A DNA stretch of 64,000 nucleotides from an uncultured Eubacteriales bacterium (GCA_964388455.1 CAYMAN010000005.1:2920-66919); one strand, 5' to 3'. Positions 3,321 to 23,522 are shown, numbered from the stretch's first letter. Made by a program: numbers and translations. The notes: generated from the sequence alone by a model not told the origin.

Positions 3321-3381
3321 GCTTTCCCAAACCTCCTTCACGCACTCCTAGTGCTAGTAAGACTTGCCGAGAACGAGCACG

Positions 3382-5220: not shown

Positions 5221-5276
5221 GTACTGCGTTCCTCCTGGATCGTCACGGCGTACGCCGCAGTGGCCATTCGAGCGGT

Positions 5277-6317
5277 TTACTTGGCTCCGAGCTCAGCCAA
5301 CATGTTCTTCAGAGCGGTGTCGTCGGGCAGGGTAGCCAGCGCGGCCTTGACCACTTTCTGGGCACCGGCTGTGTCGCCGTCGGCCTTGAGCACTTCTGCG
5401 TGGAAGATGACGGCGTCTACGTTCTCGGGGTCCAGTGCCGTCGCCAACAGCGCTGCATCGATGGCGTCCTTGAGTTGACCCGCCTTCAGCCGGGCACGAC
5501 CGTCTTCAACCGCCTGCTTCGAGGTACCAAGCTTCTTCAGCGCATCGACGGGCTGGTCCTGCTCGGGTGCCAGGTCGGCAGCCTTGCGGAGATGAATAGC
5601 GGCGTTGATCTTGTCGCCTTGATCGAGCAGGATCATCCCGTAGAGGTAGTGCGCCTCAGGATAGTTGGGATCGAACGCGAGCGCGGCGTTGAGTTGCTTG
5701 ACCGCCGCCACGTCCTCCCCCATACCGCGCAGAGACTGCGCGAGGAGGTAGTAGGTGTCCGAGGCGTCCTTGCGGATTCGCAGCGCTCCCTTGAAGTAGC
5801 CCGCGGCATCCTCGTAGCGTCGCTGACTCAGCGCGATCTCGCCCAGATGGAAGAGAGCCTGCTCGCGGCGCTCGTTCATCGCCTCGAACTGAGTCGCCTG
5901 CGTAAGCTCGACGACTTTGGTGAAGTACTTCTCGGCGGGGCCGTACTCCTTGTTTTCCATTGCGATGATGCCCAGGTCGAGGTAGGCGCCCGTGTGGTTC
6001 TTGTCGAGCTTCACTGCGATCTGGAACTGCTCGGCTGCCGGCTTGAGCTGGCCGGCTGCGGCGAGTGCCTCCCCGAATCGGACGCGTGCGGCCGCACTAT
6101 TGGGGGACTTTCTGACCACCGCCTCGATATCCTTGATCGCGCGCTGCGCGGGAGTTGCGGTGAGCTCTGCCTGCCTCCCCTGCCACACGGAATAGCCGAG
6201 AAGGGCGCCGAGGCCTATGACCGCGGACACGAGAACGATGATGACGATGCGAAGGATGCCGTCGGCGCCTTCAGGCGAGCGCTTCAATCGGCGTGTTGCA
6301 GGCGCGTTCTCACTCAT
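5277..6317 (-). CDS. Membrane-anchored TPR-repeat protein (paralog A)
   Basis: Single N-terminal TM (ILRIVIIVLVSAVIGLGALLGY) followed by tandem TPR-like helix pairs, e.g. AVKLDKNHTGAYLDLG and ALAFDPNYPEAHYLYG. ATG 6317 (SD TAAGGA) is preferred over the track TTG 6323. Confidence 0.75.
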   Translation of the reverse strand: MSENAPATRRLKRSPEGADGILRIVIIVLVSAVIGLGALLGYSVWQGRQAELTATPAQRAIKDIEAVVRKSPNSAAARVRFGEALAAAGQLKPAAEQFQIAVKLDKNHTGAYLDLGIIAMENKEYGPAEKYFTKVVELTQATQFEAMNERREQALFHLGEIALSQRRYEDAAGYFKGALRIRKDASDTYYLLAQSLRGMGEDVAAVKQLNAALAFDPNYPEAHYLYGMILLDQGDKINAAIHLRKAADLAPEQDQPVDALKKLGTSKQAVEDGRARLKAGQLKDAIDAALLATALDPENVDAVIFHAEVLKADGDTAGAQKVVKAALATLPDDTALKNMLAELGAK

Positions 6318-6455
6318 GCACAAGTCCTTACCCGTGACGTCGTACGCGCTGGAGCCTGCCGGGGCTCACATGGGGCGCGAAGACTGCTGACTGACAATAC
6401 CTGCGGTGCCAAAGTGCCGTCAACACGACGACGCCTGGCGACACGCAGGACTCAC

Positions 6456-7301
6456 CTACGGAAGCTGCTTTGCGACGGCGATCAGGGCGTTCTTGAGACC
6501 CGCCTGCTTACCGGGATCGGCCGCCATCTCCACCTGGATAAGCACAGCACCTTGCGTGAATGCAAGAATCGCATACCGAGTGTTGTCGGTGCCAAAATAC
6601 GCAGAATGTCCATTGACTTTCACCGTGCTCGCACCCATGGAGTAGGGGCGCTTCGAGTACGCCTCGAGAGCGGCTGCGGCGTAGCCCTTGTCCCGGAACT
6701 GCTCAACGTCGATGACCAGAGCGCGCACCTTGGACCCTGATGCCGGGACGTACTGACGTGTGAGGTTAAAGGCGCCCGCCACTGGCTTGGCCGCCTTGAA
6801 CCCTGTCAAGGTTCCGGGAGCCCACTTCAGCAGCGTTTTGACCGGACCGGTAATCTCGTCGTCACCGGGCTTCGCGGTACCCGTGGTGGGATTGGAGCCA
6901 CCGGATCCGGGGTTCGCAGTGTCGGGTGTCGGCTTCTTGCCGGACTTGATGACGGCCAGCTGCTTTGCCGCCTGACGGAATGCAGGGTCGTCGGCGACGA
7001 TCTGGGCGAGCTTCAACTGCGCTGCGGCCATATCACCCTTGGTGATGTCGGCCTGTGCTGCCGCGTAGAGAGCGTCAAGCTTCTTATGCCGATCACAGGT
7101 GATAGTGACGGTCTCGGCCTTGCGCAGGGTAGCCTCCTCGGCGGGGACGCTCACCGTTTTGATGGTGTTTGAGACGACCTCACCGTAAGTGCAGAGGGTG
7201 CGTGTCCCGGACTGGACCTCAACCTTCTTCTGACAGCCCCCTGTCGCGACCAATGAAGCCGTCAGTGCCGCAAGCGCGAGTATGGATCCAAGACGTCTCA
7301 T
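6456..7301 (-). CDS. Lipoprotein of unknown function
   Basis: MRRLGSILALAALTASLVATGGC is a signal peptide with a lipobox. The ATG 7301 overlaps the upstream stop as ATGA. The track start at 7493 adds an Arg-rich extension that overlaps the upstream gene, so I rejected it. Confidence 0.7.
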   Translation of the reverse strand: MRRLGSILALAALTASLVATGGCQKKVEVQSGTRTLCTYGEVVSNTIKTVSVPAEEATLRKAETVTITCDRHKKLDALYAAAQADITKGDMAAAQLKLAQIVADDPAFRQAAKQLAVIKSGKKPTPDTANPGSGGSNPTTGTAKPGDDEITGPVKTLLKWAPGTLTGFKAAKPVAGAFNLTRQYVPASGSKVRALVIDVEQFRDKGYAAAALEAYSKRPYSMGASTVKVNGHSAYFGTDNTRYAILAFTQGAVLIQVEMAADPGKQAGLKNALIAVAKQLP

Positions 7302-8764
7302 ACGTTCTCCTTCGGTGGCGAAGCGACAGACGCACTGCCCGCGCTGAGACGGCGCACGAGTGTCACGATCAGCAACACGCATGCCCCTGCCGAAAGCGCG
7401 AGAGCGGTGTATCGGACGAGGTGAGGAGCGACTTCCAAGGACAAGCGAGCATATTCCGTGCCGTAGGCCTGCTGGATCTCCGCAGGAATCCATCTCGTCC
7501 AGGTATGAAGCGGAGTGGATACAACGAGGGGATAGGCGGCAGCAGCCAACAGCGCCGAAACGGCAGCGAAGAGCGCCTCACGGACCCCGACCATTCGCCG
7601 GGACTCGATGGCTGTTGCCAGTGCGAGGAGGGACACGCTCAGCAGGAGCCATCCGACTGCTGCCTCGGCTCCGCTGAACGTCCAGTTCGCCGCGAATGCG
7701 GCGCCCGCCTCAGTGGTACCTACGACCGATGCGTTGAACGCGGGCAGAAAGAGCGCGGCGGTCGAAACCGCTGTCGCAATGCCCGCAAGCGCGATCGCCG
7801 CAATCGATTCCGGGGCCCGAGGAGCGGCGGATAAGACTTCCGCAGCCTCGGTGCAATGCGCGGTGTGCAAGACCAGTAGGCCGAGGACCACCAGCACGGA
7901 TCCACCAGCGGCCCCGGTCCACACGATCGGCGCAGGACCGAAGGCGCCCGTGAGTCGCTCGACTACTGTCAGAGCGGTGAGCGCCATCGGTGTCACGACC
8001 ATCCACGCAGTGGCTCTGACGACACCCCGTGAGCCTGCGAACCCGGCGAGTCCGGTAGCCATCGTCGACAACGCCACACCCGCGAGCATCAGCTGCGGCC
8101 ATGTGCGGCTGTAAGCGGCCGCTGCGGGCATGGTGTCGGGCAATGCGACCACAACAGACAGAGTGGTAGCGGCAGCGACACCGATCCAGAGCGAGGAGCG
8201 AAGTCCCATCAGTCCTGCGCTTCGACGAGCACCGATCAGTCCTAGGGCGAACACCCCACCAGCGCCAAAAATGATCGCCTCCTGTAGGGGGAACTTCATG
8301 AACGGCGAGAATGAACTGGGTCGCTCCCAATTGCCGAGAAGCGCTGCGGTGCCGAGGATCGTCATCAGGACAGCGGCGGACTGGACGTACGTCGGCCGCT
8401 CACGGCGAAAGAACGACGCCGCGAGCGCGGAGGCGAGCAACGCACCCGCTGTGGTGAAGAACAGGGTCTCGGTTCCTGACGGCGCGTCAGTGGCCCGCTG
8501 TGACAGCACGATCAAGGGGGCCAGGTACCACGCGAGAACACCCGCCGCACCAGCAAGAACGGTCTCGCGACGCCCGGCCGCTTTCACGCGAGCCGGTACA
8601 GCGCTGCCCACGAAGCCCGAGATGAACGCGATGGCCACCACAAGCGATGCGGCCATGATGACCGAATCGGGAACCTCGCCGATCAGGAGCGTGGACACGA
8701 CGAACCACGCGGCCGAACCAGCAACGATCATGGCGACACAGAGCGACTGATTGGACAATCTCAC
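7298..8764 (-). CDS. Polytopic integral membrane protein (~14 hydrophobic helices), unknown function
   Basis: Hydrophobic Ala/Leu/Gly/Val-rich segments run throughout the protein. GTG start with SD GGAGGAG. I recognise no cofactor or transporter motif. Confidence 0.6.
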   Translation of the reverse strand: MRLSNQSLCVAMIVAGSAAWFVVSTLLIGEVPDSVIMAASLVVAIAFISGFVGSAVPARVKAAGRRETVLAGAAGVLAWYLAPLIVLSQRATDAPSGTETLFFTTAGALLASALAASFFRRERPTYVQSAAVLMTILGTAALLGNWERPSSFSPFMKFPLQEAIIFGAGGVFALGLIGARRSAGLMGLRSSLWIGVAAATTLSVVVALPDTMPAAAAYSRTWPQLMLAGVALSTMATGLAGFAGSRGVVRATAWMVVTPMALTALTVVERLTGAFGPAPIVWTGAAGGSVLVVLGLLVLHTAHCTEAAEVLSAAPRAPESIAAIALAGIATAVSTAALFLPAFNASVVGTTEAGAAFAANWTFSGAEAAVGWLLLSVSLLALATAIESRRMVGVREALFAAVSALLAAAAYPLVVSTPLHTWTRWIPAEIQQAYGTEYARLSLEVAPHLVRYTALALSAGACVLLIVTLVRRLSAGSASVASPPKENV

Positions 8765-8875: not shown

Positions 8876-10114
8876 CTACTTGTTGTGGCAGTTCTCACAC
8901 ACGCCGCGGTTGTCCATACGGAGCAGTGCCGAAGGCGTGCTGGAAACGAACGGCGGCAGGCCCGAGCCAGATGTGTCGACTGAGAAGCCGGACATCTGCG
9001 CGACCGTGCCGTGTGCCCTGTGGCACGTGAGGCACTCGACCCAGTCGGTCGCTGTCGTCGAAGGGTTGCCCTTCTCGGAGAGATTGTTCGCGACCGGAAG
9101 TGCCAGACCAGCTACGTTCAGCGGCGTGGCGGTCGAGTTGTAAGAAGCGAGCTCCACGTTGATCGGGTGCTTGTGGCGCAGCGTCAGCGCGGCCCCATCG
9201 CCAGCGTTATACGTGCTGGCGAGCGACTGGTAGACGACACCCAGGCTGCTGGTGAACTGCTCCGTCGCGTCACCGACATACGTCGAGTGACAGCCGGCGC
9301 ACCAACCGCTCATGCCCTTGTCAGGGTTCTCGACGCCCGTGGCCATGTCATAGCCCTTGGCGTACATCGGAGTGGTGTAGTTAGGCTCGTACGCGGGGTA
9401 GCCGCCAGGATTGTGAAGACGGAAGCCCTTGTCGGGCCATCCGGTCTCTACCGACGAGACGAAGCCGTCTGGCGTCGGGTCGGCCGGGGCGGTAGCGGAT
9501 GTCACGTAGCCACCGACGTAGTTGCCGTTGACGAGCGACTTCAGGATGCGGTAGTTCGAGCTGCCGTGAGGATCATGGCAGGTGGCGCAGTCCATGGCGA
9601 TCTTGTTGGACTCGCCCGCAAGGTTGCTGGTCAGAGGGTTGCCGGTTTCGGTGTAGTTACCGGTCGCACCCGCAGTGCCCTTGCCGAAGTAGCCACCGCC
9701 GTAGGCACCCCACGCGGCACCGTTGGCGATATGCCACGACGTGGTGGCACTATCATCGAAGGACTCAAAGCCACCTGCGTTGAGTATGCCCATGTTGGTA
9801 CCGTAGTCGGTTCCGTAGTACAGACCATCGCTGACGTTGGTATCCGCGCTCTGTCCAGCTGAGTCGTGACACGCGTAGCAGAACTCCTGCATTGTCGTGG
9901 CCGACGAGACCAGCAAAGCACTGTGCTCAGTCGTTCCACTCGCGTCAGTCCACGTGAGCGAACTGACAGAAGTGTGTGCACGGTGACAACCAGCGCAAGC
10001 GTCGGTGTCGTTCACGTAGTTGCCATGGATCGCGAAGTTGGCGAACGCTGCCGAGGGAACGAGGATGGCTGCGAATGCGACGATCGCGAGCAGAATCGAG
10101 AATCTCTTCGTCAT
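8876..10114 (-). CDS. Secreted hexaheme c-type cytochrome
   Basis: Signal peptide MTKRFSILLAIVAFAAILVPSAAFA. Six CxxCH motifs: CAGCH, CYACH, CATCH, CAGCH, CLTCH, CENCH. SD GGGAGGTG. Confidence 0.85.
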   Translation of the reverse strand: MTKRFSILLAIVAFAAILVPSAAFANFAIHGNYVNDTDACAGCHRAHTSVSSLTWTDASGTTEHSALLVSSATTMQEFCYACHDSAGQSADTNVSDGLYYGTDYGTNMGILNAGGFESFDDSATTSWHIANGAAWGAYGGGYFGKGTAGATGNYTETGNPLTSNLAGESNKIAMDCATCHDPHGSSNYRILKSLVNGNYVGGYVTSATAPADPTPDGFVSSVETGWPDKGFRLHNPGGYPAYEPNYTTPMYAKGYDMATGVENPDKGMSGWCAGCHSTYVGDATEQFTSSLGVVYQSLASTYNAGDGAALTLRHKHPINVELASYNSTATPLNVAGLALPVANNLSEKGNPSTTATDWVECLTCHRAHGTVAQMSGFSVDTSGSGLPPFVSSTPSALLRMDNRGVCENCHNK

Positions 10115-10119: not shown

Positions 10120-11010
10120 CTACACCTCCCCGCCGGTCACGGCGTCTGCTTCGTTCTTGGCTCTGCGTGAGGATATCGCCATCAGGCCACCGACTACAAG
10201 CGTCGGAAGCACGACGGCCTTTGCGAGCGAGCCAGTAAGCATGCCACTCACCATCGGAGCGACATGGTCCTCGATGAACGGATCCGCCTTGGGCGGAGCC
10301 AAGAGCGTCTTGCGACTCGCCCAGAACATCGAGTCACCACCGATGACGTTCACGGTGCCGTCGGCGAAGGTGTAGCCGTTGGCGGGATCCTGAACGTATG
10401 CGGCGATGTTGGCGCGAGTGTCCCACATCATGGCCTTCGCAGGACACGTTGAGACGCAGGCCGGCTCGTGAGCGCGACCGGGCGACGCAGCGATCTCGGC
10501 GGCGGTTGCACGGGTCTGCAGGGGCGGAAGGCCTGAGCCTGCCACATCCGCATCGGAACCGGCGCGACCGGCGCACAGGATGCACTTGTTCATCAGCGTG
10601 GACTCATTGCCGATGTAGGGCTTACCGATCTTGGGATAGCCGCCGCGCTGGCAGTTAACCTGGCACGGATACTGACCAAAACGGTCCTTGCACGCTGCCG
10701 GATCACAGAGGTTCGGATCCACGGCAACGGCGCCTGTACTGGGATTCCAGGTCAGGGCAGCCTTGCCGCTCGCGTCCTTGACGGGACACGCACGGGCGCA
10801 AGGAGCGTCGACGCAGTGCCAGCACGAGAACCGAATGAACGGGCCCATGTCGACACGCTTCTGGCTCTTGATCGTCACACGCTGATCATACGCAACGTTG
10901 TGAACGCCGATCGTCTCGGCGCGGATGTTCCACTCGCGCTTACAGGCAACGACACAGCCATTGCACCGCATGCACTTGTCCACATCTTGCAGAATTGCCA
11001 TCACAGTCAT
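10120..11010 (-). CDS. 4x[4Fe-4S] ferredoxin-type electron-transfer subunit (FdnH/DmsB-like) with C-terminal TM anchor
   Basis: Cys clusters CMRCNGCVVACK, CWHCVDAPCARACP, CILCAGR and CVSTCP. C-terminal helix VVLPTLVVGGLMAISS. SD GGGAGGTG. Confidence 0.85.
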   Translation of the reverse strand: MTVMAILQDVDKCMRCNGCVVACKREWNIRAETIGVHNVAYDQRVTIKSQKRVDMGPFIRFSCWHCVDAPCARACPVKDASGKAALTWNPSTGAVAVDPNLCDPAACKDRFGQYPCQVNCQRGGYPKIGKPYIGNESTLMNKCILCAGRAGSDADVAGSGLPPLQTRATAAEIAASPGRAHEPACVSTCPAKAMMWDTRANIAAYVQDPANGYTFADGTVNVIGGDSMFWASRKTLLAPPKADPFIEDHVAPMVSGMLTGSLAKAVVLPTLVVGGLMAISSRRAKNEADAVTGGEV

Positions 11011-11023: not shown

Positions 11024-14000
11024 CTACATCTTCTTGATACGGCAGAGGCAGATCTTGTACTCAGGAATCAAAGTGTTTGCATCCCAGGCATCGATGGTGA
11101 GGTCGTTTGCACGCGAGCCGGTTGAGAGGCCCTTCTCACCCCAGTGCCATGGAATCGCGACTACACCGACGCCTACACGCTGGTTGGTGCTCTGTCCAAC
11201 GCCCACCTTGGCGCGCCAGCCCGCTCCGTAAGGAAGAAGCTTCTGGTCTGCAAGGCCCTCGGTGCGCTTCGTGATGATCTGGACCAAGTCACCATCCTGG
11301 ATGCCGTGGGCACGCGCATCGATGGAGTTGAGCTCGATCCACGGCTCGGGCTCGAGCTCATGGTTGTACGCGTTGTTTCGCGTGATCGGGCCACCCTGGA
11401 AATGCTCGACGCAACGAATCGTGGTGAGCATGAGCGGGTAGGTGTCCACGGTACCGATGGGCGACCGCGCGTCTGAAGTGGTGATCAGGTTCGCGGAGGT
11501 GCCGGTTGTGCCGTTCTTGCCCCACGTGAGCGCGAGCGTAGGCTCTGGGGTCTCGTACGGCTCGGTGTGGCCGGGGAAGCGGCCGGTGAGCACGTGCGGC
11601 GCGGTCGAGCCACCGATGCTGGGCAGATCCTTGAGGTTGTGGTGCTTGCGATAGTTGTTGTTCGCATAGTCCATGAGATCCGTGCTGAGCGTCGAGAAGA
11701 GTCTCGAGACGCGGTCCGGACCCTGGAACCCGTCCATCTGATCGCCAGGAACCTCAGCTGTGGCATCGACCGCTGCATTGTTGTTGTACAGAACGCGACG
11801 GTTGACCAGCCAAGAGTAGCCCCACTTGTGGAAGCCATAGGACTTGTAGGGATCTTCCTGTGAGCGACTCTTCGAGCGATTGGCAACTGTCCATGCAGTG
11901 TAGTCGGCACCGAGACGCGACTTGTTGAGAGTAGAGCTGTACGCCTCGTGGTAGATCCAGATCGTTCCGCCACCGGCGTTTGAGACGACGGTGCACATCT
12001 GGCGATACAACTTCTCCGCGACGTACTCGGCGCCCGTCATCGCGCCCGTCTTGATGCCACCCTCGTGGGTGAATCCGGACTCGGTCGCGTCCTTGAAATC
12101 ATCGACGGTAGCCGTTGCGTTCGGCGTCCAGCCGTACTGGCGACCGAACAGTGAGTCATACACCGATACGAAGGTGCCAGGTGTCGCACCGTCCGTGCTT
12201 GCTGCGAACGCTGCGCCCTTAGTCCATCCGAGACCGCCGGATGCCTTGGCCGTGGTCCACTTGTTCTCGATGTGCGAGAACACGCTCTTCTCGTCAAGCT
12301 TCTTGGCGAGACGAAGCAGCAGCTCGAGATCGGTCTTGCTGTTGCCGCTGGGGAGTTTGGCCTGATAGCGCCACTGCAGTACGCGACCGGAGTTGGTTGC
12401 GCTACCGGCCTGCTCGACGTGCGCGGCAGCCGGAATCAGGTACGTTACTGCACCATCCTTACGCGGAATAGCGGCCGTCTCAGTCTCGAAGACATCCTGT
12501 ACGACCAACAGATCGAGGTTCTTGAGGCCGTCGCGCACCACACCCTGGTTGGGCTCGGTCACGGCCGGGTTCTGGCCAAGAATGAACGCAGCCTTCGTGC
12601 CGCCTGCGACCATCTTGCGGAACATGGAGATGTGATCATCGCCGTTACCCTTTGGCCAGAGGTCGTACACAGCGTTGACCTTCGTGCGCCTGTCGGCGAT
12701 GGCTGCCGTGGCGGCGTCATCAACGTAGTCGTCGGCACCAGCGGCGTAGTTCGGAGCGAACCACCGCATGGTCATGTTGTAGAAGCCCTTGGACTGCAGG
12801 TTCAGGGGTCCCGTGCCTACCAAGCCCCATGTGCTACGAGTGAACGCGTCATCGTACGGGTTGGTGCCCATGTTCATGCGGTTGCCCCACAGGCCGTCCA
12901 TGTACTTACCGAACGCATTGACGTCATTCTTAGTCGAGTCCGAGTGACCAGCGCTCATCACCGTCGGGTTGCCCGAGTACGCAGGGATGTTGCCGAACAG
13001 CAGACCCATATCCGTGGAGCCCTGAACGTTGTGGATTCCACGAAGGGCGTTGATTCCGCCGCCCGCACGACCCGCGTTACCCAGAATGGTCTGGAGGTTG
13101 GCGAAGCCCTTGACGTTCTGCGAGCCACACGTGTGCTGGGTGATTCCCATTGCGTAGAGAATCGTGGTCGCACGATAGCCGGATGCGTAGGGCGTCTTGA
13201 CAAGACCCGTCAGCGGATCCGCGTCGCCTGCGCCGGTGTAGCTAGCCATGCGGCTGTGCTTGATCATTTCTTCGGCAACCGCAACAAGCTCGGCCGGGGT
13301 ACACCCGCAGATATCGGCAACAGTGGCCTCGTCATACGGTGCGACCTGGGCTTTGAGCTTCTGGAAAACACTGTCCGCATCGGTGATGTCGTTCGCGGCA
13401 ACAGGAAGCGCCGTGAACTGGAATGCAGCGTCCCACCAGCCCATACCGAAGTACAGGTTTGCCAGGCTATCTGAATACCAGAGTGCCCAGCTGGTACCGA
13501 CCTGGGCGACCACTGGACGCGCGGTGCCTGCGCTGGCGGTCACGCCCGGCAAACCCTTGATGTAACCGGTCAATCCGGCAGCCACAACAGGCCGCGTGAA
13601 GGTCAGGCCATCGGCGGAAGTTGCCGTGCTGATCTTCTGGATCTGATCCGTCAAGCTGTACCCAACGTACAGGAGCTGGTATGCAGCGCCGTTCTTGACA
13701 ACCATCGGGTGCATGACGCGATAGCTATCCCAGCCAGTCGCCGCAGGTGAAAGAGCCGGTACGGGACCGCCGACGACAGCCTCGAACGAGGCGTTGAAGG
13801 TGGTTGCGTCCCAGGTACCGGGCGCGTCCGTCGTGAAGCCCTGATACAGCTTGTACTCAGCGGCTGGATTCCCACGACCCTGGAAGTAGAGGCGATATGT
13901 CGCTCCATCCTTCAGGACCATAGGACGGTCGTACTTGTAGATGGTCATGCCCGCACTGTCGGTGACAGGTGTCGTCACCGGATCGAGGATGACGGCTTCG

Positions 14001-15526
14001 GCGCCCCATGTCAGGCCATCAGCAGAGCTGCGAATGGTGAGTTTACGATCCGCATCGTTGTTGACCATGTAGTACACGCCGGACTCAAGCCAGACGAACG
14101 GTGCATCGGCGCCGTCGGAGACGTTGGTATCGACACCCGTCGTCCACGTGTTGCCGTCCTTGGAGGTCGCGAACTGGATGTTCGTCTCCGCGCCTACAGC
14201 CGAGACGTACCACATCTTGTACTTCTTGGCGGCGTCAGTCTCCGCTGCGTCAAACACAACTGTCGGTGTGTTAGCGGCATATCCGGTTGCAGCAGCCTTG
14301 TTGTAGCGCTGATAGTCGCTGCCCACCGAGTTGATCTTCAGGCGTGCATCGGTGTACTTGGAGCGATCCGCGGCCGTAGCTACGCCGCCCCTAGCACCGT
14401 CGGGGATGAACGTCTGCGTCTGCTTCTGGTTAAGGAAGGCGTCGAAGTGAGTCTTGTACTTCTCCGTTGCAGCTGCGCCGTCCGCGATGTTGTTGATGAT
14501 GTAACGAATCAGGCCGTTCTGGAACGCGATGTCTGTTCCGGGACGGATACGCACATACATGTCCGCCTGCGTCGCGGTGCGCGTCTTGCGCGGATCGATG
14601 ACGATCATCTTCGCCGCGGGCTTTGCACTTATGTCGCCGTTAGGCAGAACCTGGTTGGCGGTCTTGGCGCGGTTGATGTGCGCCATGCACGCCGGATGGT
14701 TCTCTGCCGGATTAGCTCCCCACGCGATGACAAGCGTCGAGTTCGCGATATCTGTCCAGCTGTTGGTCATTGCTCCACGTGCGAATGCGGCGGCCAGACC
14801 GGCCACCGTTGACGAGTGTCATATTCGCGCCTGATGCTCGACGTTGCTGGTACCGAAGTTCGCGATGAGTTTGCGGTACAGATAGTTGCCTTCGCTGTTC
14901 ATGTGCGAACTACCGAAGAACGCAACGCCCTTACTGTTGTAGCCGTTCGCGGCCGACGGTGCTGAAACACCGGCGCCACCAACGTTGTCACGTGCGGCCT
15001 TGAGGCCGTCTGCGATCTCATCCATCGCCTGGTCTAGCGGCATCGCCGTCCACGCGGTGTTAACGCCTGATGCAGTTCCTGTGGACTTGTACGCGACGCC
15101 GTTAGGAGCAGCCGGGTCGGCAAGGAAGGCATTGCTGCCTGCAGGGTGGTTGAGACTGCCGCCGAGCTCAGGCGAGCCAGCTTCCCACGCACCGATACGA
15201 CGAGAGTTGTTCACGAGCTGAAGAGAGCCCGCACCCTTGGAGCACAGACCGCCGGTATTGAAGACGGACTCGAAATCGCCATAGATGTCGACGACCTTGC
15301 CAGATGATTTCTCAACGACTACTCGCTGCCCGCAACTAGCGGAACAGTAAGGACAGGTGGTTGTGGTGATCGTGTAGGCGGCCATTCCCTCGTACGCCGC
15401 TGCCTTTGCAGGGTCGTATGCGAAGTTGAGACCGCAACCAACCACCGCTGTTGCAGCAGCGGATGACTTCAGAAAGTCTCTACGTGAGAGTCCTGAGGCC
15501 CCCTGCCCGGTGTCTTTAGTTGCCAT
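11024..15526 (-). CDS. Tat-exported selenocysteine-containing molybdo/tungstopterin oxidoreductase, formate dehydrogenase (FdnG)-like, 1500 aa with internal beta-propeller-like insertion
   Basis: Track ORFs 14819..15526 and 11024..14806 are in the same frame and separated only by TGA 14819-14821. The joined reading is ...NVEHQARI-U-HSSTVAGLAAAFARGAMTNSW, which matches the FdnG/FdhF Sec context. Tat signal SRRDFLKSSAAATAVVG. N-terminal FeS motif CPYCSASCG...C. C-terminal pterin-binding region ...LTTIRCVEHFQGG... Confidence 0.85.
14789..14807 (-). promoter_or_regulatory. SECIS-like hairpin 11 nt 3' of the UGA codon
   Basis: GGUGGCC-GGUCU-GGCCGCC forms a 7-bp stem with one G-U pair. The GGUCU loop resembles the E. 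coli fdhF SECIS apical loop. Confidence 0.65.
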
Positions 15527-16046: not shown

Positions 16047-17543
16047 CTAGCGTTCATTCTGCCGATCGTTTGCGCCGAAATATCGTGCAATGAACTGCTC
16101 CGCATCAAATGTGCCAATCTCCGCTAAACGCGCAAGGCGCCGGAGATCCAAATCCTCGGTGCACAGACCCCGAGCACGATCAGCAAGTGCAAGGAGAATC
16201 GCCTCGCGCTCACCGATGTCGAGCTTCTCGCGCATCGCACGCACATCGGACTCCGAGTACTCCTCGGCCTGGATAAGCGTGCCAAGATCGACGTCGCCAA
16301 CGATGCGGCCCGCGTATAGCGCGTGGTCCATCTCAGGACAGAGCAGACGCAGCTTGCGCTTGGAGGCCACTTCGGCGATCACATCGCGCTGAATGAGCAC
16401 CTCGACGAACTCCGGTGAGACGACTAGGCGGACCTTTCTGAGCATCAACGGAATCAGGAGCAGAAGGAGCGGCAGGAGACACAGCGCCCAACCCCACGGC
16501 GTGCTGGGGGTGACAACTCTCGGGATGGGAGCAACCGGCCAGCCCCATACCTGGACCTGATCGTTCTCGCGGTCGGTGACGTAAATGCGGCCGTTCTTAT
16601 CGAGCGCCACATCTGCGGGATAGTTGAACTGACTGGGACCAAATCCCTTGGAACCGAACTGAACCAGCTGCTTGCCATCGAGATCGTAGATGTCCACGAC
16701 ATGTGCGAGAGCGTCGACCGCGAACAGATGCTTGGAATCCACAGCCAGACCGCGAGGAATACCCGATGAGTCGATGATGCGGATCAATTCGCCGGTTGGC
16801 TTGAACACCTGAATGCGACGGTTGTTGGAATCCGAGACGTAGACAGCGCCGTTCTTCGCCACAGCGATACCACTTGGAAAGAAGAACTCGCTCGGCGAAT
16901 CGATCACCGAGTTGGCCTGAACTGTCTTGCCGAACGTGACCGTTCGGCTGCCCTCGGTGGAGAAGAAGATGACTCTGTGTCGGTCCGTTGCGCCGACATC
17001 AGTGACTCTCGGCGCACCTGATGTGTCAAAGGAGATTGCCAGTGGAGCCCAACTGAACTTGGGTTCACCCTCCGGCGTGAACGTCCTCAGGTACTTACCC
17101 TCGAGGTCGTAGACGTAGATGGTCCTGAAGCGGCGCTCGGTTACCCACACCTCGGAGCCCTTGATGGCGACGTTCACTGGCGAGCGAAGTCGACCCTTGC
17201 CAGTGGTGCCGAACGAGAAGAGATACCTGCCGCGCGGAGCGAACACGCTCATCCGCCGATTGCCCGCGTCAACGACGTACACGCGGCCATCCGCGCCGAT
17301 ATCGACTCCGGCAGGGCGTCTGATCTGACCCTTGCCTTCGTCTCCGGTGATGGAGAACAGATACTGCGGCGCTGTCAACGCCGCTTGTGGCTCTCCCAAC
17401 TTCACAGACGGCAGGCTCTGGTTCCTCACAAAGTAGAACGTCGCATATGAAAGCAACGCGAGCAGCAAGAGGAGCAGAGCAAGCAGGATGACACGTTTGC
17501 GCTTCTGACGACGAGTTAGAGGCTGACGCGTGCTACTTGCCAT
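16047..17543 (-). CDS. Bitopic membrane protein: TM, NHL-repeat beta-propeller, TM, PIN-like C-terminal domain (paralog B)
   Basis: Same architecture as 3718..5220. Blades include VYVVDAGNRRMSVF, VWVTERRFRTIYVY, VYVSDSNNRRIQVF and IYVTDRENDQVQVW. TM2 is ALCLLPLLLLLIPLML, followed by RK. The start overlaps the upstream TPR gene by 11 nt. Confidence 0.8.
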   Translation of the reverse strand: MASSTRQPLTRRQKRKRVILLALLLLLLALLSYATFYFVRNQSLPSVKLGEPQAALTAPQYLFSITGDEGKGQIRRPAGVDIGADGRVYVVDAGNRRMSVFAPRGRYLFSFGTTGKGRLRSPVNVAIKGSEVWVTERRFRTIYVYDLEGKYLRTFTPEGEPKFSWAPLAISFDTSGAPRVTDVGATDRHRVIFFSTEGSRTVTFGKTVQANSVIDSPSEFFFPSGIAVAKNGAVYVSDSNNRRIQVFKPTGELIRIIDSSGIPRGLAVDSKHLFAVDALAHVVDIYDLDGKQLVQFGSKGFGPSQFNYPADVALDKNGRIYVTDRENDQVQVWGWPVAPIPRVVTPSTPWGWALCLLPLLLLLIPLMLRKVRLVVSPEFVEVLIQRDVIAEVASKRKLRLLCPEMDHALYAGRIVGDVDLGTLIQAEEYSESDVRAMREKLDIGEREAILLALADRARGLCTEDLDLRRLARLAEIGTFDAEQFIARYFGANDRQNER

Positions 17544-18537
17544 TGTTCACCTTTTCCAGACCGGCCTTCGCCGACGCATTGTTGGGTTCGATCACCAGGA
17601 CGCGCTGATACATCTCTGCGGCATGCTTCTTGGCACCCGTCTTGACCGCCAGGTCGCCGAGCAGGATGAGTGCCTCGACGTTCTGTGGTTCAAGAGCCAC
17701 CGCGATGCGTGCCTCGATCAGCGCGGCTTTGGGGTCCTTGGCTGCCTTGGTCTTGGCCGCGGCGAGGCGATCACTGAAGGGCCCGAGCTCATCCAGTGCA
17801 TCCTGCGGCAAGTCCACATTGGGGGCCGCGGCGATCGACGTGCGCAGGTGTTCTGCGGCCCCGGCCTTGTCGCCGTCCTTGAGGAGGAGGAGTGCGTAGT
17901 CGTAGTTCGCCTCGGGCATCTTGGGGTCGAACAGCAGCGTGTTCTCGAGCTCCTCGCGGTACTTTGAATCAGAACCCAGCTTGCTGTAGGTGAAAGCCAA
18001 TGCATAGTGCGTGTCCGAGGCGTCGCGTCGGAGAAGAATGGCCTTCTTGTAGTAGTTCGCGGCCTCCTCGTACTCCTTCTGCTCCATGAGCGCAGTGCCC
18101 AAGTAGAAGTACGCGATCTCGAGTTGCGCATCCGGACCGCTCTTGTGCTTGGGCTCGAGTATCGCGATCACTCGGCGGAAGTACGTCTCCCCCTCGGCGA
18201 ACTGCTTGCGCTGCAGGGCGAGAAAACCGATGCCTGAGATCGCAGGCGCGAAGTCCTTGCTGATCTTGAGTGCGGCCTCGTACTGCACCACCGCGTCCTT
18301 GTCCCGACCGGCGACCGCGAGAGCCTGCGCGAGCTGCATGCGTGCGTCGATGTCATTGGGGTTCTTGCGAACCCTGGCCTCGACAGCAGCGACCGCGCGC
18401 GCAGCGGGCGTTGAGTCAACGATCTGACGGCCCTGAGCCCAGACCGAATAGCCAAGATATGCGCCAAGAACAAGCACCACAACGGCTATGGCTGCTATGA
18501 CGGCGTCAAGCGGGCGGATGTTTCTGACAGTGGACAC
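17533..18537 (-). CDS. Membrane-anchored TPR-repeat protein (paralog B)
   Basis: N-terminal TM AVIAAIAVVVLVLGAYLGY followed by TPR-like repeats, e.g. ALKISKDFAPAISGIGFLAL and TLLFDPKMPEANYDYALLLL. GTG start with SD AAGGGAG. Confidence 0.75.
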   Translation of the reverse strand: MSTVRNIRPLDAVIAAIAVVVLVLGAYLGYSVWAQGRQIVDSTPAARAVAAVEARVRKNPNDIDARMQLAQALAVAGRDKDAVVQYEAALKISKDFAPAISGIGFLALQRKQFAEGETYFRRVIAILEPKHKSGPDAQLEIAYFYLGTALMEQKEYEEAANYYKKAILLRRDASDTHYALAFTYSKLGSDSKYREELENTLLFDPKMPEANYDYALLLLKDGDKAGAAEHLRTSIAAAPNVDLPQDALDELGPFSDRLAAAKTKAAKDPKAALIEARIAVALEPQNVEALILLGDLAVKTGAKKHAAEMYQRVLVIEPNNASAKAGLEKVNNGK

Positions 18538-18580: not shown

Positions 18581-20221
18581 CTAGATGTTCAGGTCGGTAT
18601 GGCAGCGCAAGCACAACGACGCTCCGGGATACGGAGCGATGATCTGATTCTGATAGTCGACCGCACCGTGGCAGCCATAGCACAAGCGAACGTCGTGCCC
18701 TGCGTTCGGCAGACTCCCGGCGGTCCCATCGTGCGCTGGCGACGACGCAGCGGTTGAGAACCCGATATGGCAGTCATCACAAGTGTACGGCTTCCCATCG
18801 TACGGTTTGCCACCTCGGGTCGTTCCGGTTTTGAAGTGCACGGCGTGCTCGGCGAAGCCCTTGTTCTTGATGGAAGTGGGCGGCTTCTTCGTCATCTCTT
18901 CATGGCACGGTACGCAGTTCTTCGAGATGAGCTCCGCCTTGGCGACCTTCTGGTGGTGGCAGTTCTGACACGTGGCCCGATTCGTGTGGCACACATTGCA
19001 GTCATCGGTCGTCACGCCGGGAGCCGGCCGGTGATTCTCGATCCAGCCGGTGGGGTGCGGCATGACGGTCTTGTGGCATCGCTGGCACGACTTCGCGTCA
19101 TGACACGAACCACACGCGCCCTTGCCGCCAAGGTACAGCGGTCCGTGCTTGGTCTTCCAGTCGGCCTTGAGATGGTCCTTCGGTACGACCGACTTGGCGG
19201 GCGCATTTGGCGATTCACTCTTGCCTGTGTGGCACTTCACACAGAAGGCGGACTTGTGACACATGGCGCAGTACGCAGGGTCAGCGTTGGCCGTCTTCTG
19301 GTGTTTGCCCCGCACAAACGACTTGGTGTGATTCTTGGGAACCAGGTCGAAGCTCTTGGGGTGGCACTTGAGACACGCGTCCCCGGCGACGAGCCCCTGT
19401 GTCGAATGCTCGAGCCCGTGGCACCGGTAGCAGGACAGCATCTCGGGCTTGGTCGCGCCATCTGCCGTGTGTCCGAACGTCGGGTGGCACACGCTGCATT
19501 TGTAGTTGCGCTCGACGTGCGCCGAGTGGGCGAAGATGAGCGGCCCGGGCATGAAAGCGTCAAGATTGGGATGGCAGTAAGAGCACTGCGACATCGTCGT
19601 CGAACCCGTCGGATAGATCTTGATCGATGGGTCTTTCGCCTTCTCGGTGATTATTGAAGCGTATGTGGGAGGCATGGGCGGGATATCGAGATTCTTGTCC
19701 TTGTGGCAGACGTCGCAGTCTTTGACGGACTCATGGCACATCATGCACTGGTTGACACCGGAATCGTTGGCGACGTCGGCGTGGGGCTTGTTGGGCCAGT
19801 CTTTGACGTGACTCTTGGGGCGCAGCGTCTTTGACTTCGTGTGGCACTTGTTGCACTCGGCGGTTGCGAGTTCGCCCTGAGGTCCATGCGAAACGCCGTG
19901 GCACGCGAAGCACACTTCCATCGGGACCGTCTCCGTGACGCCGTCCCGGTGGGGCATGCGGGCATGGCAACCGTCGCAAGCGACCATGAGATGGTTTCCG
20001 TGGCTGAAGATCAATCCCGGCTGGTTGACCGAGCCCAAGTCGAGGTGACACGGCACGCACTGTGAGCGGTCGACGGAAGCTGCGGTGTCGATGACCGGAT
20101 CGGGCGAACCTGGTGTCGCGGCCAATCCGAAACGCACAGAAGCAAGCAGGAAGGCGGCCACGAGAACAGTCGCGGCCACCCCCCAAACCCAGTTATGTCG
20201 ATTGTGTCGTGCGTCAATCAC
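18581..20221 (-). CDS. Membrane-anchored multiheme c-type cytochrome, 20 CxxCH motifs
   Basis: N-terminal TM VWGVAATVLVAAFLLASV. I count 20 CxxCH motifs, from CVPCH and CDGCH through CYGCH and CLRCH. GTG start with SD TAGGGAG. Confidence 0.85.
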   Translation of the reverse strand: MIDARHNRHNWVWGVAATVLVAAFLLASVRFGLAATPGSPDPVIDTAASVDRSQCVPCHLDLGSVNQPGLIFSHGNHLMVACDGCHARMPHRDGVTETVPMEVCFACHGVSHGPQGELATAECNKCHTKSKTLRPKSHVKDWPNKPHADVANDSGVNQCMMCHESVKDCDVCHKDKNLDIPPMPPTYASIITEKAKDPSIKIYPTGSTTMSQCSYCHPNLDAFMPGPLIFAHSAHVERNYKCSVCHPTFGHTADGATKPEMLSCYRCHGLEHSTQGLVAGDACLKCHPKSFDLVPKNHTKSFVRGKHQKTANADPAYCAMCHKSAFCVKCHTGKSESPNAPAKSVVPKDHLKADWKTKHGPLYLGGKGACGSCHDAKSCQRCHKTVMPHPTGWIENHRPAPGVTTDDCNVCHTNRATCQNCHHQKVAKAELISKNCVPCHEEMTKKPPTSIKNKGFAEHAVHFKTGTTRGGKPYDGKPYTCDDCHIGFSTAASSPAHDGTAGSLPNAGHDVRLCYGCHGAVDYQNQIIAPYPGASLCLRCHTDLNI

Positions 20222-20244
20222 GCGGGTATCAGACTCCCTAGCGA

Positions 20245-21585
20245 CTAGTCGCCGCCCAGCCCACGAATGCGGGCGATCAGTTGAAGCAGTGCGTTCTGTT
20301 CCTGGGCCTCGCCCTTACGATGGATCAGTTCGCCCGCGGCGGCACCGAACTCCTCGCTCGATCCCTTGTGGCAACCTTCCTGGCCGCACGTCGTGCCGAT
20401 GTTCTTGGTCGAGACGCTGGATGCGGCATTCGCACTAGGAAGAACCTCGTGCGCCTCATGGCACTGCCAACATGCGGGTGAATCTGCGGCGCCGTTCTTG
20501 TATGCACGCCCATGATAGTAGTCATTGTACGTCGCGTAATCGTCGCCGTGCTGCTTACAGCGGGCGCAGGTGCGATAAGCCGATCCATGCATACGCAGCT
20601 TGCCGGCCTCTGTCGCGGTACTGTAGATGAAGTGACCGCCGTGGCAGGATGCGCAGGTGGCCGACTCGTAGTCACCTTCGAGCAGCTTCTCGGAGTGAAC
20701 CGACTTGCCGTACTCGGCGACCGGGTCCTTGAGCTTCGGCTCCTCGAGATCCTGATGGCACGTGCCACACGCGATGCCGGCGTTGATGTTCCATAGCTTG
20801 GTCACACCTGGCTTGTCGTCGTAACGATAGTCCGGGTGACACTGCTGGCATGTGTTTTCGCGGTGCGCAGAGTCATCGACTCCGGCCACCTCGAACGATT
20901 TGGCTGCGCCGGCCGACTGCTTCAAGAGCGTCGAACTGCCGTGACACGACTGACAGCCGTTGTCACTGTCGAAGTCCCACCCGGTCGACGGGGTCCAGTC
21001 GATGTTCTCGCGGAGGTGACAGTCCACGCAGTCGGCAGCCTTATGACACATCATGCACTTGGTGTTGAGCGCATCGTTCGAAGGCTTGACGTGCGGTTTC
21101 TGTGCCCAATCCGCGGTGTGGAAGGCGGGGCGAAGACGCCACTTAGGCGTCACGTGACAGGCATCGCAATTGTCCTTGGCGATGATACCCATCGAGCCGT
21201 GGCGCAGTCCGTGGCAGTCGAAACAGCCCTTCATGGTCGGGCGCTCAGTGCCGGTCTTACGGTGAGGGAATCGCGGGTGACAACCGCTGCACTGCACGAT
21301 GATGTGGTTGCCGTGCGAGAACTTGATCGACGATGAGTAATTCTTGGAAAGTGCGATGTTGCCGTGACACAACGTGGTGCACGCTGCACCATCGACCTGC
21401 GAGCCAGCGAGCTGGTCGAAGAGCTGTGTGATAGAAGCGGAGCCCGTCGTGAGATCGATCTCGTCGACCGGCACGGCGTCCGCAGCGAAGACGAACGACG
21501 TTGATGCGATAACGGTACAGAACGCTGCCGTCGCGAGTGCGAAGGCGAGCAGCCTGCCGGGGCGTGCTCTGAACCTGAAGGTCAT
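20245..21585 (-). CDS. Secreted multiheme c-type cytochrome: 10 CxxCH plus CX3CH, CxxCK and CX4CH sites
   Basis: Signal peptide MTFRFRARPGRLLAFALATAAFCTVIASTSFVFA, from ATG 21585 with SD GGAGAAGGGG; the track start 21816 is rejected. Variant motifs are CTTLCH, CARCK and CGQEGCH. The N-terminal half is homologous to the 20-heme protein and the C-terminal part to the 7-heme protein. Confidence 0.8.
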   Translation of the reverse strand: MTFRFRARPGRLLAFALATAAFCTVIASTSFVFAADAVPVDEIDLTTGSASITQLFDQLAGSQVDGAACTTLCHGNIALSKNYSSSIKFSHGNHIIVQCSGCHPRFPHRKTGTERPTMKGCFDCHGLRHGSMGIIAKDNCDACHVTPKWRLRPAFHTADWAQKPHVKPSNDALNTKCMMCHKAADCVDCHLRENIDWTPSTGWDFDSDNGCQSCHGSSTLLKQSAGAAKSFEVAGVDDSAHRENTCQQCHPDYRYDDKPGVTKLWNINAGIACGTCHQDLEEPKLKDPVAEYGKSVHSEKLLEGDYESATCASCHGGHFIYSTATEAGKLRMHGSAYRTCARCKQHGDDYATYNDYYHGRAYKNGAADSPACWQCHEAHEVLPSANAASSVSTKNIGTTCGQEGCHKGSSEEFGAAAGELIHRKGEAQEQNALLQLIARIRGLGGD

Positions 21586-21644
21586 GCTGTCGTACCCCTT
21601 CTCCCCGTTGGGCCCTCTTGGGAGCGCCCAACGCACTGATGGTC

Positions 21645-22646: not shown

Positions 22647-22658
22647 CTTCGTTGCTCC

Positions 22659-23522
22659 CTAGACCTGGTCTGCCACGGGTACCGCCGGAGCGTGCTCCAT
22701 ACCGGGAGCCTTGGCATCGTGCGCACGGTCATCGCCATGTGCGTCACCGTGATCGCCATGCTCGGCGTGGGGCCTGTCCAGAAAACCCAGACCGAAGAAG
22801 TCCAGGAACGCCGGGAGGTCCTCGGTGACTGAGAGGTACACGTGAATCGTGGTGAGAACAATGAACAGCCAGTTGATGAGGTAGTGGATGGTTCTGACCC
22901 ACCACACACCGCTGGCGCCGATGAGTCCGGCAACAAGCTGCTGGAGGCTGACATCGACGATCGGCAACATGAGTCGCCAGAGCATCAGGCCGGTGATGGC
23001 CTGTGCGATCAGCAGCGGCACGAACAGCGTGTACGTGCCCTTCTGCATGATGTTGTACTTGCCCAGGTGCGGCTTGGACGGCTTCACGAAGATGTAATAC
23101 AGAATGACCTTCGGGGCCGTGGTGAGGTCGCGCTTGCTGATGGCGAACTCGCGATAGTCACGACGGCGCGAGCCGAACGCGTACCACAGGCGCACGATCA
23201 GGTTGACGATCACGATGATCATCGCGATGTAGTGCACCCACTGCATGAACGCACGGCCACCGTTGAAGAACGGGAACCGAATGTACATGCCCGACACGCC
23301 CAGCGCGATCATGGCAGCGACGTGCTGGAAGTGCAGAAGCTTGGGAAGTGCAGGAATAGGTCCGCCTTCATGCGCAGGCCACTCCCAACCGACAAACCTT
23401 CGTTTAGCGCGACCAGTCAGGATGTTGCCGAGGAAGTGGCCTGAGAGCGCCACAACAATCACCACATAGAGCGTGGTGAACACGACATCGATCCAGACGT
23501 TAAGCTGCGTCAGTCCGATCAA
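22659..23522 (-). CDS. Integral-membrane b-type cytochrome (Ni/Fe-hydrogenase / FdnI-type cytochrome b family-like) with His/Asp-rich C-terminal tail
   Basis: Four to five TM helices carry conserved His residues (LLHFQHVAAMIAL, WVHYIAMIIV, VRTIHYLINWLFIVLTTIHVYL). Tail: RPHAEHGDHGDAHGDDRAHD. TTG start with SD GGGAGTAGGGGG. Confidence 0.65.
   Translation of the reverse strand: MIGLTQLNVWIDVVFTTLYVVIVVALSGHFLGNILTGRAKRRFVGWEWPAHEGGPIPALPKLLHFQHVAAMIALGVSGMYIRFPFFNGGRAFMQWVHYIAMIIVIVNLIVRLWYAFGSRRRDYREFAISKRDLTTAPKVILYYIFVKPSKPHLGKYNIMQKGTYTLFVPLLIAQAITGLMLWRLMLPIVDVSLQQLVAGLIGASGVWWVRTIHYLINWLFIVLTTIHVYLSVTEDLPAFLDFFGLGFLDRPHAEHGDHGDAHGDDRAHDAKAPGMEHAPAVPVADQV

Follow-up and report, generated by a model that had tools for sequence, protein, structure and literature searches.

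A predicted five-bladed beta-propeller nested in an exported selenocysteine formate dehydrogenase of metagenomic bacteria

Introduction

Formate dehydrogenases (FDHs) that depend on molybdenum or tungsten (Mo/W) have been studied heavily as CO2-reducing catalysts and as entry points to respiratory chains, and their catalytic subunit is seen as a conserved four-domain core. Here we describe an FDH gene, fdhA, in a 64,000-nucleotide stretch of DNA from an uncultured Eubacteriales bacterium (GCA_964388455.1, CAYMAN010000005.1, positions 2920 to 66919); the whole of this stretch is called the window, and all coordinates are counted from its first letter. The product of the gene carries a foreign domain, predicted to be a complete five-bladed beta-propeller, within its pterin-binding part.

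The closest described enzymes are Desulfovibrio vulgaris FdhAB (Protein Data Bank (PDB) entries 6sdv and 8cm4), the D. gigas enzyme (1h0h) and Escherichia coli FdnG (1kqf). The FDH described here resembles them in its twin-arginine translocation (Tat) signal, [4Fe-4S] motif, adjacent selenocysteine and histidine (the U-H pair), active-site arginine and pterin domains, and its partner, as in known FDHs, is a four-cluster protein like FdhB/FdnH that has a transmembrane helix at its C-terminus. It differs in being about 490 residues longer than the periplasmic selenocysteine FDHs, with a propeller of about 280 residues placed after the RPGTD helix and before the APY...ICGC helices, and with extra lineage-specific extensions at residues 110-157, 855-965 and 1079-1214 of the query. 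Its immediate downstream partner is a six-haem cytochrome c and not just a cytochrome b.

For the inserted domain, the closest described structures belong to glycoside hydrolase (GH) family 130, represented by Teth514_1788 (9gph/9fj8), Teth514_1789 (7fip) and TM1225 (1vkd), with which the insert has the five-bladed fold and the blade motif in common. The GH130 proton donor is the Asp that follows an E or Y, D104 in UhgbMP, and the phosphorylase groups of this family are without signal peptides (PMC7660257). The insert is unlike GH130 in that the donor Asp is not conserved, PF04041 is not matched and the similarity is blade-wise only, and also in being nested and, by prediction, extracytoplasmic.

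Electron transfer across the wall in single-membrane metal reducers is poorly understood. Parvivirga hydrogeniphila, a cultured member of the Anaerosomatales, obligately reduces Fe(III), with formate or H2 as substrate, and has a cluster of multihaem cytochrome and molybdopterin oxidoreductase genes, flagged by its describers as a possible determinant of iron reduction; their description mentions no inserted FDH domain (PMC9686372). This cluster (MCL4079376-90), from a Coriobacteriia-type single-membrane bacterium, places an FDH-like molybdoenzyme amid multihaem cytochromes; named relatives of the FDH described here belong to the same taxonomic order.

Both the enzyme and the fold are known; what is new is that one is nested in the other and that the insertion site varies, in an architecture limited to a few metagenomic lineages. 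An initial annotation of the sequence had known of no described FDH with such an insertion, and a full-text literature search agreed, returning nothing relevant on an FDH, or another enzyme with a bis-pyranopterin guanine dinucleotide (bisPGD) cofactor, that contains a nested propeller. The finding means that an FDH core can bear a whole foreign domain in a surface loop while staying under selection.

Results

Extent and boundaries of the insertion

The features that define the insertion are the following, with the basis of each in brackets.

11024..15526, minus strand: fdhA, a 1500-residue Tat-exported, selenocysteine-containing W/Mo-bisPGD FDH catalytic subunit (translation, Pfam, PDB sequence search)
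13424..14296, minus strand: the insert with its linkers, residues 411-701 (alignment with relatives that have and that lack the insert)
13439..14275, minus strand: the ordered five-bladed beta-propeller, residues 418-696 (AlphaFold2, Foldseek)

The insert is flanked by lineage-conserved sequence, ...KYTDARL.IN..G.DYQRYNK on one side and FQFTALPVAANDITDADSVFQKLKAQVAPY on the other, and its boundaries were set from alignment with insert-less relatives and from the AlphaFold2 strands. In local alignments the flanks, with the general patterns ...KYTDAR...DY.R... and ...(I/F).(N/A)(F/L)P..A....D..(V)(Y/F/W)..L..HVAPY..., are separated by few residues in most relatives and by about 290 here; in P0145, P0041, P0037 and P0066 they are joined directly. 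Aligned with D. vulgaris FdhA (6sdv and related entries), residues 347-759 of the query correspond to residues 290-370 of the solved chain, 412 residues against 80. Using as rulers two motifs that flank the region and are conserved among relatives, RPGTD and YAMG.TQH, we find a spacing of 463 residues here, and among the 120 closest relatives a spacing of at most 215 in 94, of 216-330 in 18, and of at least 430 in the remaining eight. The insert is found neither in solved FDH structures nor in 112 of these 120 relatives.

These results confirm the insertion of about 290 residues in a pterin-dependent catalytic subunit that the initial annotation had placed at 13397..14269 (residues 420-710), with a shift of about 10 residues. 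The strand and turn signatures that it had read (KMWYVSA, YRLYFQG, YQLLYVGY, WALWYSD, ATSKDGNTW, SSADGLTWG and ATSADGLTFT) are all present in the translation, and the survey of homologs shows that the segment is not an ordinary, lineage-typical region. Its statement that FdnG-type sequences run almost directly from one flanking block to the other was mistaken, as canonical FDHs have about 80-120 residues there and the present lineage has 165-215.

Predicted fold of the insert

The insert was modelled with AlphaFold2 on an alignment of its sequence with eight other FDH inserts and twelve free-standing relatives, which runs blade by blade with the pattern P.V..DG..Y.MWY.G....IG.A.S.DG..W. The model is all-beta, with 17 strands in five groups and no helices (predicted local distance difference test, pLDDT, 82.1; predicted template modelling score, pTM, 0.85). 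The five blades are as follows.

14117..14275, minus strand: blade 1, residues 418-470 (PTVVFDA...KYKMWYVSA...IQFATSKDGNTWTT), with model strands 16-23, 34-40, 47-53 and 63-68; aligned with free-standing propellers
13985..14098, minus strand: blade 2, residues 477-514 (DAPFVWLESGVYYMVNN...TIRSSADGLTWG), from alignments and model; its 'ADAPF' contains the GH130 proton-donor position
13751..13945, minus strand: blade 3, residues 528-592 (YKYDRPMVLKDGATYRLYFQG...FTTDAPGTWDA), from alignment and model; holds the invariant Asp533 (D131 in insert numbering)
13556..13720, minus strand: blade 4, residues 603-657 (WDSYRVMHPMVVKNGAAYQLLYVGY...ISTATSADGLTFTRP), the best preserved blade and the source of most database matches
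13439..13525, minus strand: blade 5, residues 668-696 (ARPVVAQVGTSWALWYSDSLANLYFG), with model strands 266-274, 277-284 and 289-294

When the model was compared with the PDB by Foldseek, the top 50 matches were all five-bladed propellers. The best were the GH130 1,2-beta-oligomannan phosphorylases 9gph and 9fj8 (E 7e-10, probability 1.00, TM score 0.63-0.65), the GH130 set, which includes 7fip, spanning E values of 7e-10 to 4e-9 and TM scores of 0.59-0.65, and GH43, GH117 and GH32 structures ranked after it. At the sequence level, phmmer found no match in the PDB for the single insert, and matches came with profiles: a mixed profile reached GH130 7fip at E 3e-19, and a profile made from FDH inserts alone reached GH117 4ak7 at 3e-10 and GH130 9fj8 at 8e-9. 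A search of 5.8 billion proteins with the insert returned 27 matches, with E values down to 1e-18, all of GH130, GH32 or DUF377 type. Together, these sequence and structure matches place the likeness to a propeller far outside chance. The negatives of this word-indexed search carry little weight, as the insert alone retrieved no FDH and missed even P0028, which is 97% identical across the insert; P0028 and other FDHs were recovered from the same set when the whole open reading frame (ORF) served as the query.

A 1200-residue model of the host protein has a pLDDT of 73 and a pTM of 0.69; within it the propeller scores pLDDT 80-93, the flanks form short strands, and the linkers score 60-75. In these models the insert is a genuine and complete five-bladed beta-propeller of the GH130/GH117/GH43/GH32 fold, nested in the FDH, where a small lineage-specific beta-hairpin of the pterin-binding part bears it at its tip. 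The propeller-like domain first proposed from motifs was therefore recovered by structure prediction, and not disorder or another fold. As to its type, the assignment to GH32/43/130-like propellers, with GH117 added, stands on the fold and the profiles, and the assignment to BNR/sialidase propellers of the GH33 type was rejected, the insert having five blades, not six, and no Pfam BNR match.

Family membership and catalytic residues

The hidden Markov model searches proposed in the initial annotation (BNR and Glyco_hydro_32, 43 and 130) brought no family to threshold. With the insert alone, Pfam gave no match at E ≤ 1 that deserves credit, the LtfC match at E 0.099 being spurious, and the insert falls below the gathering threshold of PF04041 (GH130), which free-standing relatives pass. 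Matches to solved enzymes cover single blades, and within one target several different blades pair with blade 4 of the insert. The same holds where the GH130 phosphate-binding Arg/His pair of phosphorylases or the second carboxylate base of hydrolases would be sought, as matches to GH130 chains span single blades only.

The 7fip sequence 'GVEDPRI', whose 'EDPR' contains the proton donor, aligns with 'ADAPFV' of the insert, in a sequence alignment that could be shifted by one residue. Across eight inserts the donor position is occupied by A, A, A, A, S, A, N and N; it is preceded by D in six inserts and by N in the other two, P0030 and P0031. GH43 and GH32 enzymes need three axial carboxylates, an Asp in blade 1, an Asp in blade 3 and a Glu in blade 4, and the GH32 motif is 'RDP'. 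Located by topology and not by superposition, the residue that precedes the first strand in the eight inserts is T/K/E/E/R/R/A/D in blade 1 and H/Q/A/A/H/H/H/H in blade 4, and among the GH43/GH32 carboxylate positions only that of blade 3 carries an invariant Asp, D131. Active GH130, GH43 or GH32 enzymes were rejected as candidates on these grounds. Since it lacks the conserved residues by which GH130, GH43 and GH32 enzymes act, and since every Pfam family stays below threshold, the insert is a divergent and probably non-catalytic member of the GH130/43/117/32 fold that cannot be assigned to any one of these families.

The insert alignment nevertheless has 27 invariant columns, which include D131 and W197-D198. 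Polar residues near the axis comprise D or N in blade 2, the invariant D131 in blade 3, H, Q or A in blade 4, and R or K in blade 5. D131 is invariant in all eight FDH inserts and is not conserved in the free-standing relatives. The conserved near-axis residues, assigned from the alignment and the usual propeller topology, suggest a putative ligand pocket.

The insert contains the Asp-box turns TSKDGNTW, SSADGLTW and TSADGLTF and a degenerate TTDAPGTW. An Asp-box-like SxDGxTW turn is common to GH117 and GH130 blades, as in 'YATSKDGLTWK' of 4ak7, and since it occurs in GH117 chains it does not single out sialidases. Among the profile matches the one sialidase is 7mhu, whose E value of 1.5e-4 puts it far behind GH130 and GH117, and the Foldseek top 50 contain none.

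The host enzyme

Two minus-strand ORFs, 14819..15526 and 11024..14806, form a single gene in which an in-frame TGA is read through; in translation, the 1500-codon frame is interrupted solely by this TGA, in EHQARI-U-HSSTVAGL. Three features of the gene bear on its export and decoding.

15440..15490, minus strand: Tat signal, residues 13-29 (LSRRDFLKSSAAATAVV), PF10518 at 23.7 bits against a cut-off of 22.7
14819..14821, minus strand: TGA read as selenocysteine U236, followed by His237 (sequence, and alignment with D. vulgaris FdhA)
14788..14808, minus strand: hairpin resembling a selenocysteine insertion sequence (SECIS), with an 8-base-pair G+C-rich stem and a GGUCU loop, beginning 13 nucleotides past the UGA

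The TGA aligns with U192 of D. vulgaris FdhA, the U/C position of the motif EHQARI(U)HS. The hairpin appears in both the minimum free energy fold and the centroid fold, the whole 72-nucleotide segment being no more stable than shuffled sequences (z -0.5), and its reading as a SECIS-like element is suggestive only. Pfam recognises TAT_signal (PF10518) and Molybdop_Fe4S4 (PF04879, 38 bits), both over their cut-offs, as well as Molybdopterin (PF00384, 1e-36) and Molydop_binding (PF01568, 5e-15). In the PDB sequence search the protein matches D. vulgaris FdhA (E 3e-94 to 1e-92), D. gigas 1h0h (6e-87) and E. coli FdnG 1kqf (3e-76), and it aligns with the solved selenocysteine FDHs in five collinear segments. 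The active-site Arg is kept in NALRG.HNVQGSTD, where NALRGIHNVQGSTD aligns with NALRGESNVQGSTD, and every FDH catalytic motif is intact. Because of the alignment of the TGA with selenocysteine, the Tat signal, the domains, the active-site Arg, the sel genes of the window and the hairpin, we regard the host protein as an exported, selenocysteine-containing W/Mo FDH catalytic subunit of the FdnG/FdhA type, with activity and metal predicted.

Distribution and evolution of the insert

The same insert at the same junction is found in P0028 (97% identity overall), P0029 (74%), P0030 (59%), P0031 (54%), P0043, P0065, P0112 and P0114 (41-43%), P0214, and P0283, which is truncated at its N-terminus. 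The propeller-in-FDH architecture is therefore present in at least ten further proteins from independent metagenomes, and insert-bearing FDHs at 41-97% identity come from independent JGI, NCBI, ENA and Logan assemblies. Among GTDB species representatives, a search with a four-sequence alignment found one genome with an insert-bearing FDH, CAZHMA010000008.1, which encodes P0031, its other matches being free-standing propellers; a scan of GTDB genomes with exact insert peptides found no relative.

When the FDH core was used to build a neighbour-joining tree, the insert-bearing proteins fell into three subclades of one 18-member clade, to which nine insert-less proteins also belong. P0145, the closest relative of P0114 (distance 0.21), has no insert at the identical junction. 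The propeller is dispensable and is predicted not to be needed for formate oxidation, because close relatives go without it. The inserts are 29-51% identical to each other and 22-27% identical to free-standing propellers, and they share a pattern of degenerate blades. Because the inserts are closer to each other and have this pattern in common, we infer that the insert was acquired a single time, with later losses or with exchange from one FDH gene to another.

Compared with L015, which is 97% identical, the insert has 18 non-synonymous and 23 synonymous changes, which gives a ratio of non-synonymous to synonymous substitution rates (dN/dS) of 0.24; for the rest of the gene the ratio is 0.087. 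The insert is kept in hosts whose cores differ by about 40-55%. The insert is under purifying selection that is looser than that on the catalytic core. The G+C content is flat across the insert region, at about 0.60, on which ground a recent foreign acquisition was rejected.

Other members of the clade carry other modules. P0035, P0096, P0086 and P0143 have one or two copies of a beta-rich unit of about 70 residues with the motif (T)..DY.(V/L)(D/N)...G.I......I......V.V.Y.Y, placed before the KYTDAR hairpin or just before YAMG, and P0145 has a segment of about 100 residues following 'GNRVVG'. Some of the 18 relatives with the 216-330 spacing have a precomputed match to PF27730, which our local copy of Pfam did not reproduce. 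The region around the insert looks like a hot spot for domain insertion.

Free-standing relatives of the propeller

Searched against 1.84 billion cluster representatives, the FDH-insert profile matched 13,710 at E ≤ 1e-3. Many of these are blade-repeat proteins with 5, 10, 15 and up to 66 blade matches, in which the repeat unit corresponds to profile positions of about 175-240. At the extreme stand giant proteins, P0148 (5844 residues) and P0149-P0157, with 10-66 matches to the blade-4 unit, which amounts to many tandem propellers. The closest sequence relatives of the insert, free-standing secreted propellers such as P0001 and P0004-P0010 together with the giant multi-propeller surface proteins P0148 and P0260 (E values down to 1e-18, 22-27% identity), have five blades and an Asp-box-like turn in common with it. 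They differ in having near-identical repeats with a G.WD motif, whereas the blades of the insert have diverged and only blade 4 retains the full motif.

The closest free-standing relatives carry signal peptides, and others are fused to domains of surface type (subtilase/PA/Fn3, beta-helix, He_PIG, Big_13, cohesin, PKD and Por_Secre_tail). Their source annotation reads 'predicted GH43/DUF377 family glycosyl hydrolase'. This family of secreted repeat-blade propellers seems to be very large and uncharacterised.

Discussion

Possible function of the propeller

We favour, tentatively and at a little under an even chance, the reading that the propeller is an accessory extracytoplasmic binding module whose likeliest ligand is a carbohydrate polymer of the envelope. 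The analysis establishes that the propeller fold is there, that it is nested, rare, under selection and dispensable, and that it lies outside the cytoplasm; that it binds something, and what it binds, we deduce. Its setting outside the cytoplasmic membrane is indicated by the Tat signal, the C-terminal transmembrane helix of FdhB, the secreted cytochrome encoded downstream and the signal peptides and surface-type fusions of free-standing relatives. A role in docking or in binding cell wall or glycan, suggested in the initial annotation for a Tat-exported enzyme in a monoderm envelope, appears plausible because of the Tat signal, the secreted and surface-fused relatives, a CWB2-domain protein encoded in the window (see below) and the loss of glycosidase residues. 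Under this reading the acidic and polar axial pocket, made up of the D or N of blade 2, the invariant D of blade 3, the H or Q of blade 4 and the R or K of blade 5, would bind the envelope polymer. Binding would keep the complex of FdhA, FdhB and multihaem cytochrome in the wall zone, near the multihaem wire, and the host would be a bacterium with a single membrane, which passes the electrons of formate to acceptors outside the cell. This would be a possible mechanism for placing an exported redox enzyme in the wall of bacteria that have no periplasm, close to their multihaem cytochromes, and it would give a functional context to the large family of secreted repeat-blade propellers.

Several points weigh against this proposal. 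The binding role is a prediction, and the envelope polymer is a candidate ligand. The pocket residues were placed by topology, and the pocket could pack against the body of the FDH. Where the propeller stands with respect to the formate funnel and the FdhB interface would have to be read from a 1200-residue model with a pTM of only 0.69, and a study of the tunnels of D. vulgaris FdhAB gives no residue-level detail that would locate the insertion site against the funnel. The axial D/N together with the invariant D could still support some chemistry. Finally, the single-membrane envelope is deduced from the named relatives of the FDH, which belong to the Actinomycetota, Coriobacteriia and Anaerosomatales, and from the CWB2 protein.

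The module might instead be a protein-protein docking platform for a redox partner or an assembly factor, such as a multihaem cytochrome, one of the NHL-propeller membrane proteins or the lipoprotein. The wide use of propellers as interaction scaffolds fits this alternative, as does the abundance of secreted multihaem cytochromes and of TPR and NHL proteins in the FDH cluster. However, the order of about 17 genes is alike in loci with the insert (L001, L002, L011 and L013) and in loci without it (L014, L016 and L017), and in this comparison no gene of the locus co-occurs with the insert, so that no partner tracks it. The fold family and the free-standing relatives, moreover, are carbohydrate-associated, and we consider a docking platform unlikely.

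An alternative to which we give the same low weight is that the propeller is a ligand-free structural passenger at a permissive loop, acting as a stabiliser, a shield, a decoration or a wall spacer. That the same region accepts unrelated modules, of about 70 residues in P0035, P0096, P0086 and P0143 and of about 100 residues in P0145, is what one would expect of such a passenger, and so are the patchy presence and absence in the 18-member clade and the laxer selection on the insert than on the core (0.24 against 0.087). Nevertheless, a dN/dS of 0.24 still amounts to clear purifying selection, and the insert-specific polar axial residues, D131 in eight of eight inserts among them, are conserved beyond the needs of folding.

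A broader proposal, which we think doubtful though worth stating, is that in exported respiratory enzymes of these cytochrome-rich bacteria with one membrane the permissive hairpin of the catalytic subunit may be a module socket. Interchangeable surface-binding domains, the GH130-like propeller here and small beta-sandwich units in relatives, would come and go at this socket and dock the formate-oxidising complex to a particular wall or extracellular glycan. If this were the case, the docked glycan would fix where electrons enter the multihaem wire, and the socket would represent a previously unrecognised way to organise extracellular electron transfer in space. The permissive insertion site may also be of use in engineering or immobilising FDHs.

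A bifunctional protein, in which the propeller still works as a glycoside hydrolase or phosphorylase, is very unlikely. The propeller does have the fold of GH130, GH43, GH117 and GH32, and the D/N of blade 2 and the invariant D of blade 3 stand at spots analogous to the carboxylates of 'EDPR' (GH130) and 'RDP' (GH32); however, Ala, Ser or Asn takes the donor position, P0030 and P0031 have Asn in place of the neighbouring Asp, blades 1 and 4 have no conserved acid, no Pfam GH family is matched even at E = 1, and the matches are to single blades. That the insert is an artefact, whether an assembly chimera, a pseudogene or a mis-joined frame, can be dismissed with near certainty, given the continuous frame, the independent assemblies that share the architecture, the uniform G+C content of about 0.60, the purifying selection and the intact FDH motifs.

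Gene neighbourhood and further features of the window

The genes downstream of fdhA are, in order, fdhB, a gene for a six-haem cytochrome c, one for a polytopic membrane protein and one for a lipoprotein. Upstream lie genes for a TPR protein, a membrane NHL-propeller protein, three multihaem cytochromes (20, about 10-12 and 7 CxxCH motifs), a cytochrome b and a class-V aminotransferase. The genes annotated in detail, with those for selenocysteine synthesis and insertion, are as follows.

10120..11010, minus strand: fdhB, 296 residues with 16 cysteines, four-cluster ferredoxin type with a C-terminal transmembrane helix (ORF and sequence)
8876..10114, minus strand: 412-residue secreted cytochrome c with six CxxCH motifs (sequence), always directly downstream of fdhB (synteny)
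7298..8764, minus strand: 488-residue polytopic membrane protein without a Pfam family, a conserved cluster member (sequence)
50457..50553, minus strand: selenocysteine tRNA (tRNA-Sec), anticodon tca (ARAGORN)
54950..56923, minus strand: selB (Pfam, SelB wing domains)
56868..58343, minus strand: selA (Pfam, SelA at E 1e-154)
58812..59771, minus strand: selD (Pfam, AIRS/AIRS_C)

Genes in the fdhB position carry Fer4_11 in every related locus, and genes of 472-485 codons without a Pfam match occupy the position of the polytopic membrane protein in L001, L002, L013, L014, L016 and L017. The full selenocysteine machinery (tRNA-Sec, selB, selA and selD) lies 35-45 kb from fdhA. The class-V aminotransferase gene is at 23967..25157, and in related loci a Se_S_carrier gene stands alongside it.

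Cofactor genes adjoin the FDH cluster at 26880..34336 on the minus strand. They encode MoaA, MoeA and a 478-residue MobA-FdhD fusion, and the same interval also holds genes for a TOBE-domain ABC ATPase and for a binding protein (PBP_like_2) of the tungstate/molybdate type. Inside the MoeA gene (28734..30044, minus strand), ARAGORN reported a 94-nucleotide tRNA-Leu(caa) on the opposite strand (29295..29388, plus strand), which is probably a false positive.

The three upstream genes for c-type cytochromes fall within 18581..23522 (minus strand), together with a cytochrome b561-type gene at 22659..23522, and a further multihaem gene is found at 50616..52205 (plus strand). The dense cytochrome set of the window resembles the extracellular electron transfer clusters of Anaerosomatales. 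At 43138..46686 (minus strand) the window encodes a 1182-residue protein with a BNR/Sortilin-like propeller region, three InlB B-repeat-like domains and three CWB2 domains; its predicted role as a wall-anchored surface protein is consistent with a single-membrane envelope.

The TPR protein and the membrane protein upstream of fdhA (16047..18537, minus strand) have a paralogous pair at 3718..6323 (minus strand). In each pair the membrane protein has a transmembrane helix at its N-terminus, then an NHL propeller and another transmembrane helix, and it ends in a cytoplasmic domain of about 150 residues. One pair lies just upstream of fdhA and the other just upstream of the gene for a NiFe(Se) hydrogenase small subunit with a Tat signal (1968..3341), an arrangement that recurs in L002, and the TPR/NHL pairs may be dedicated partners of exported respiratory enzymes.

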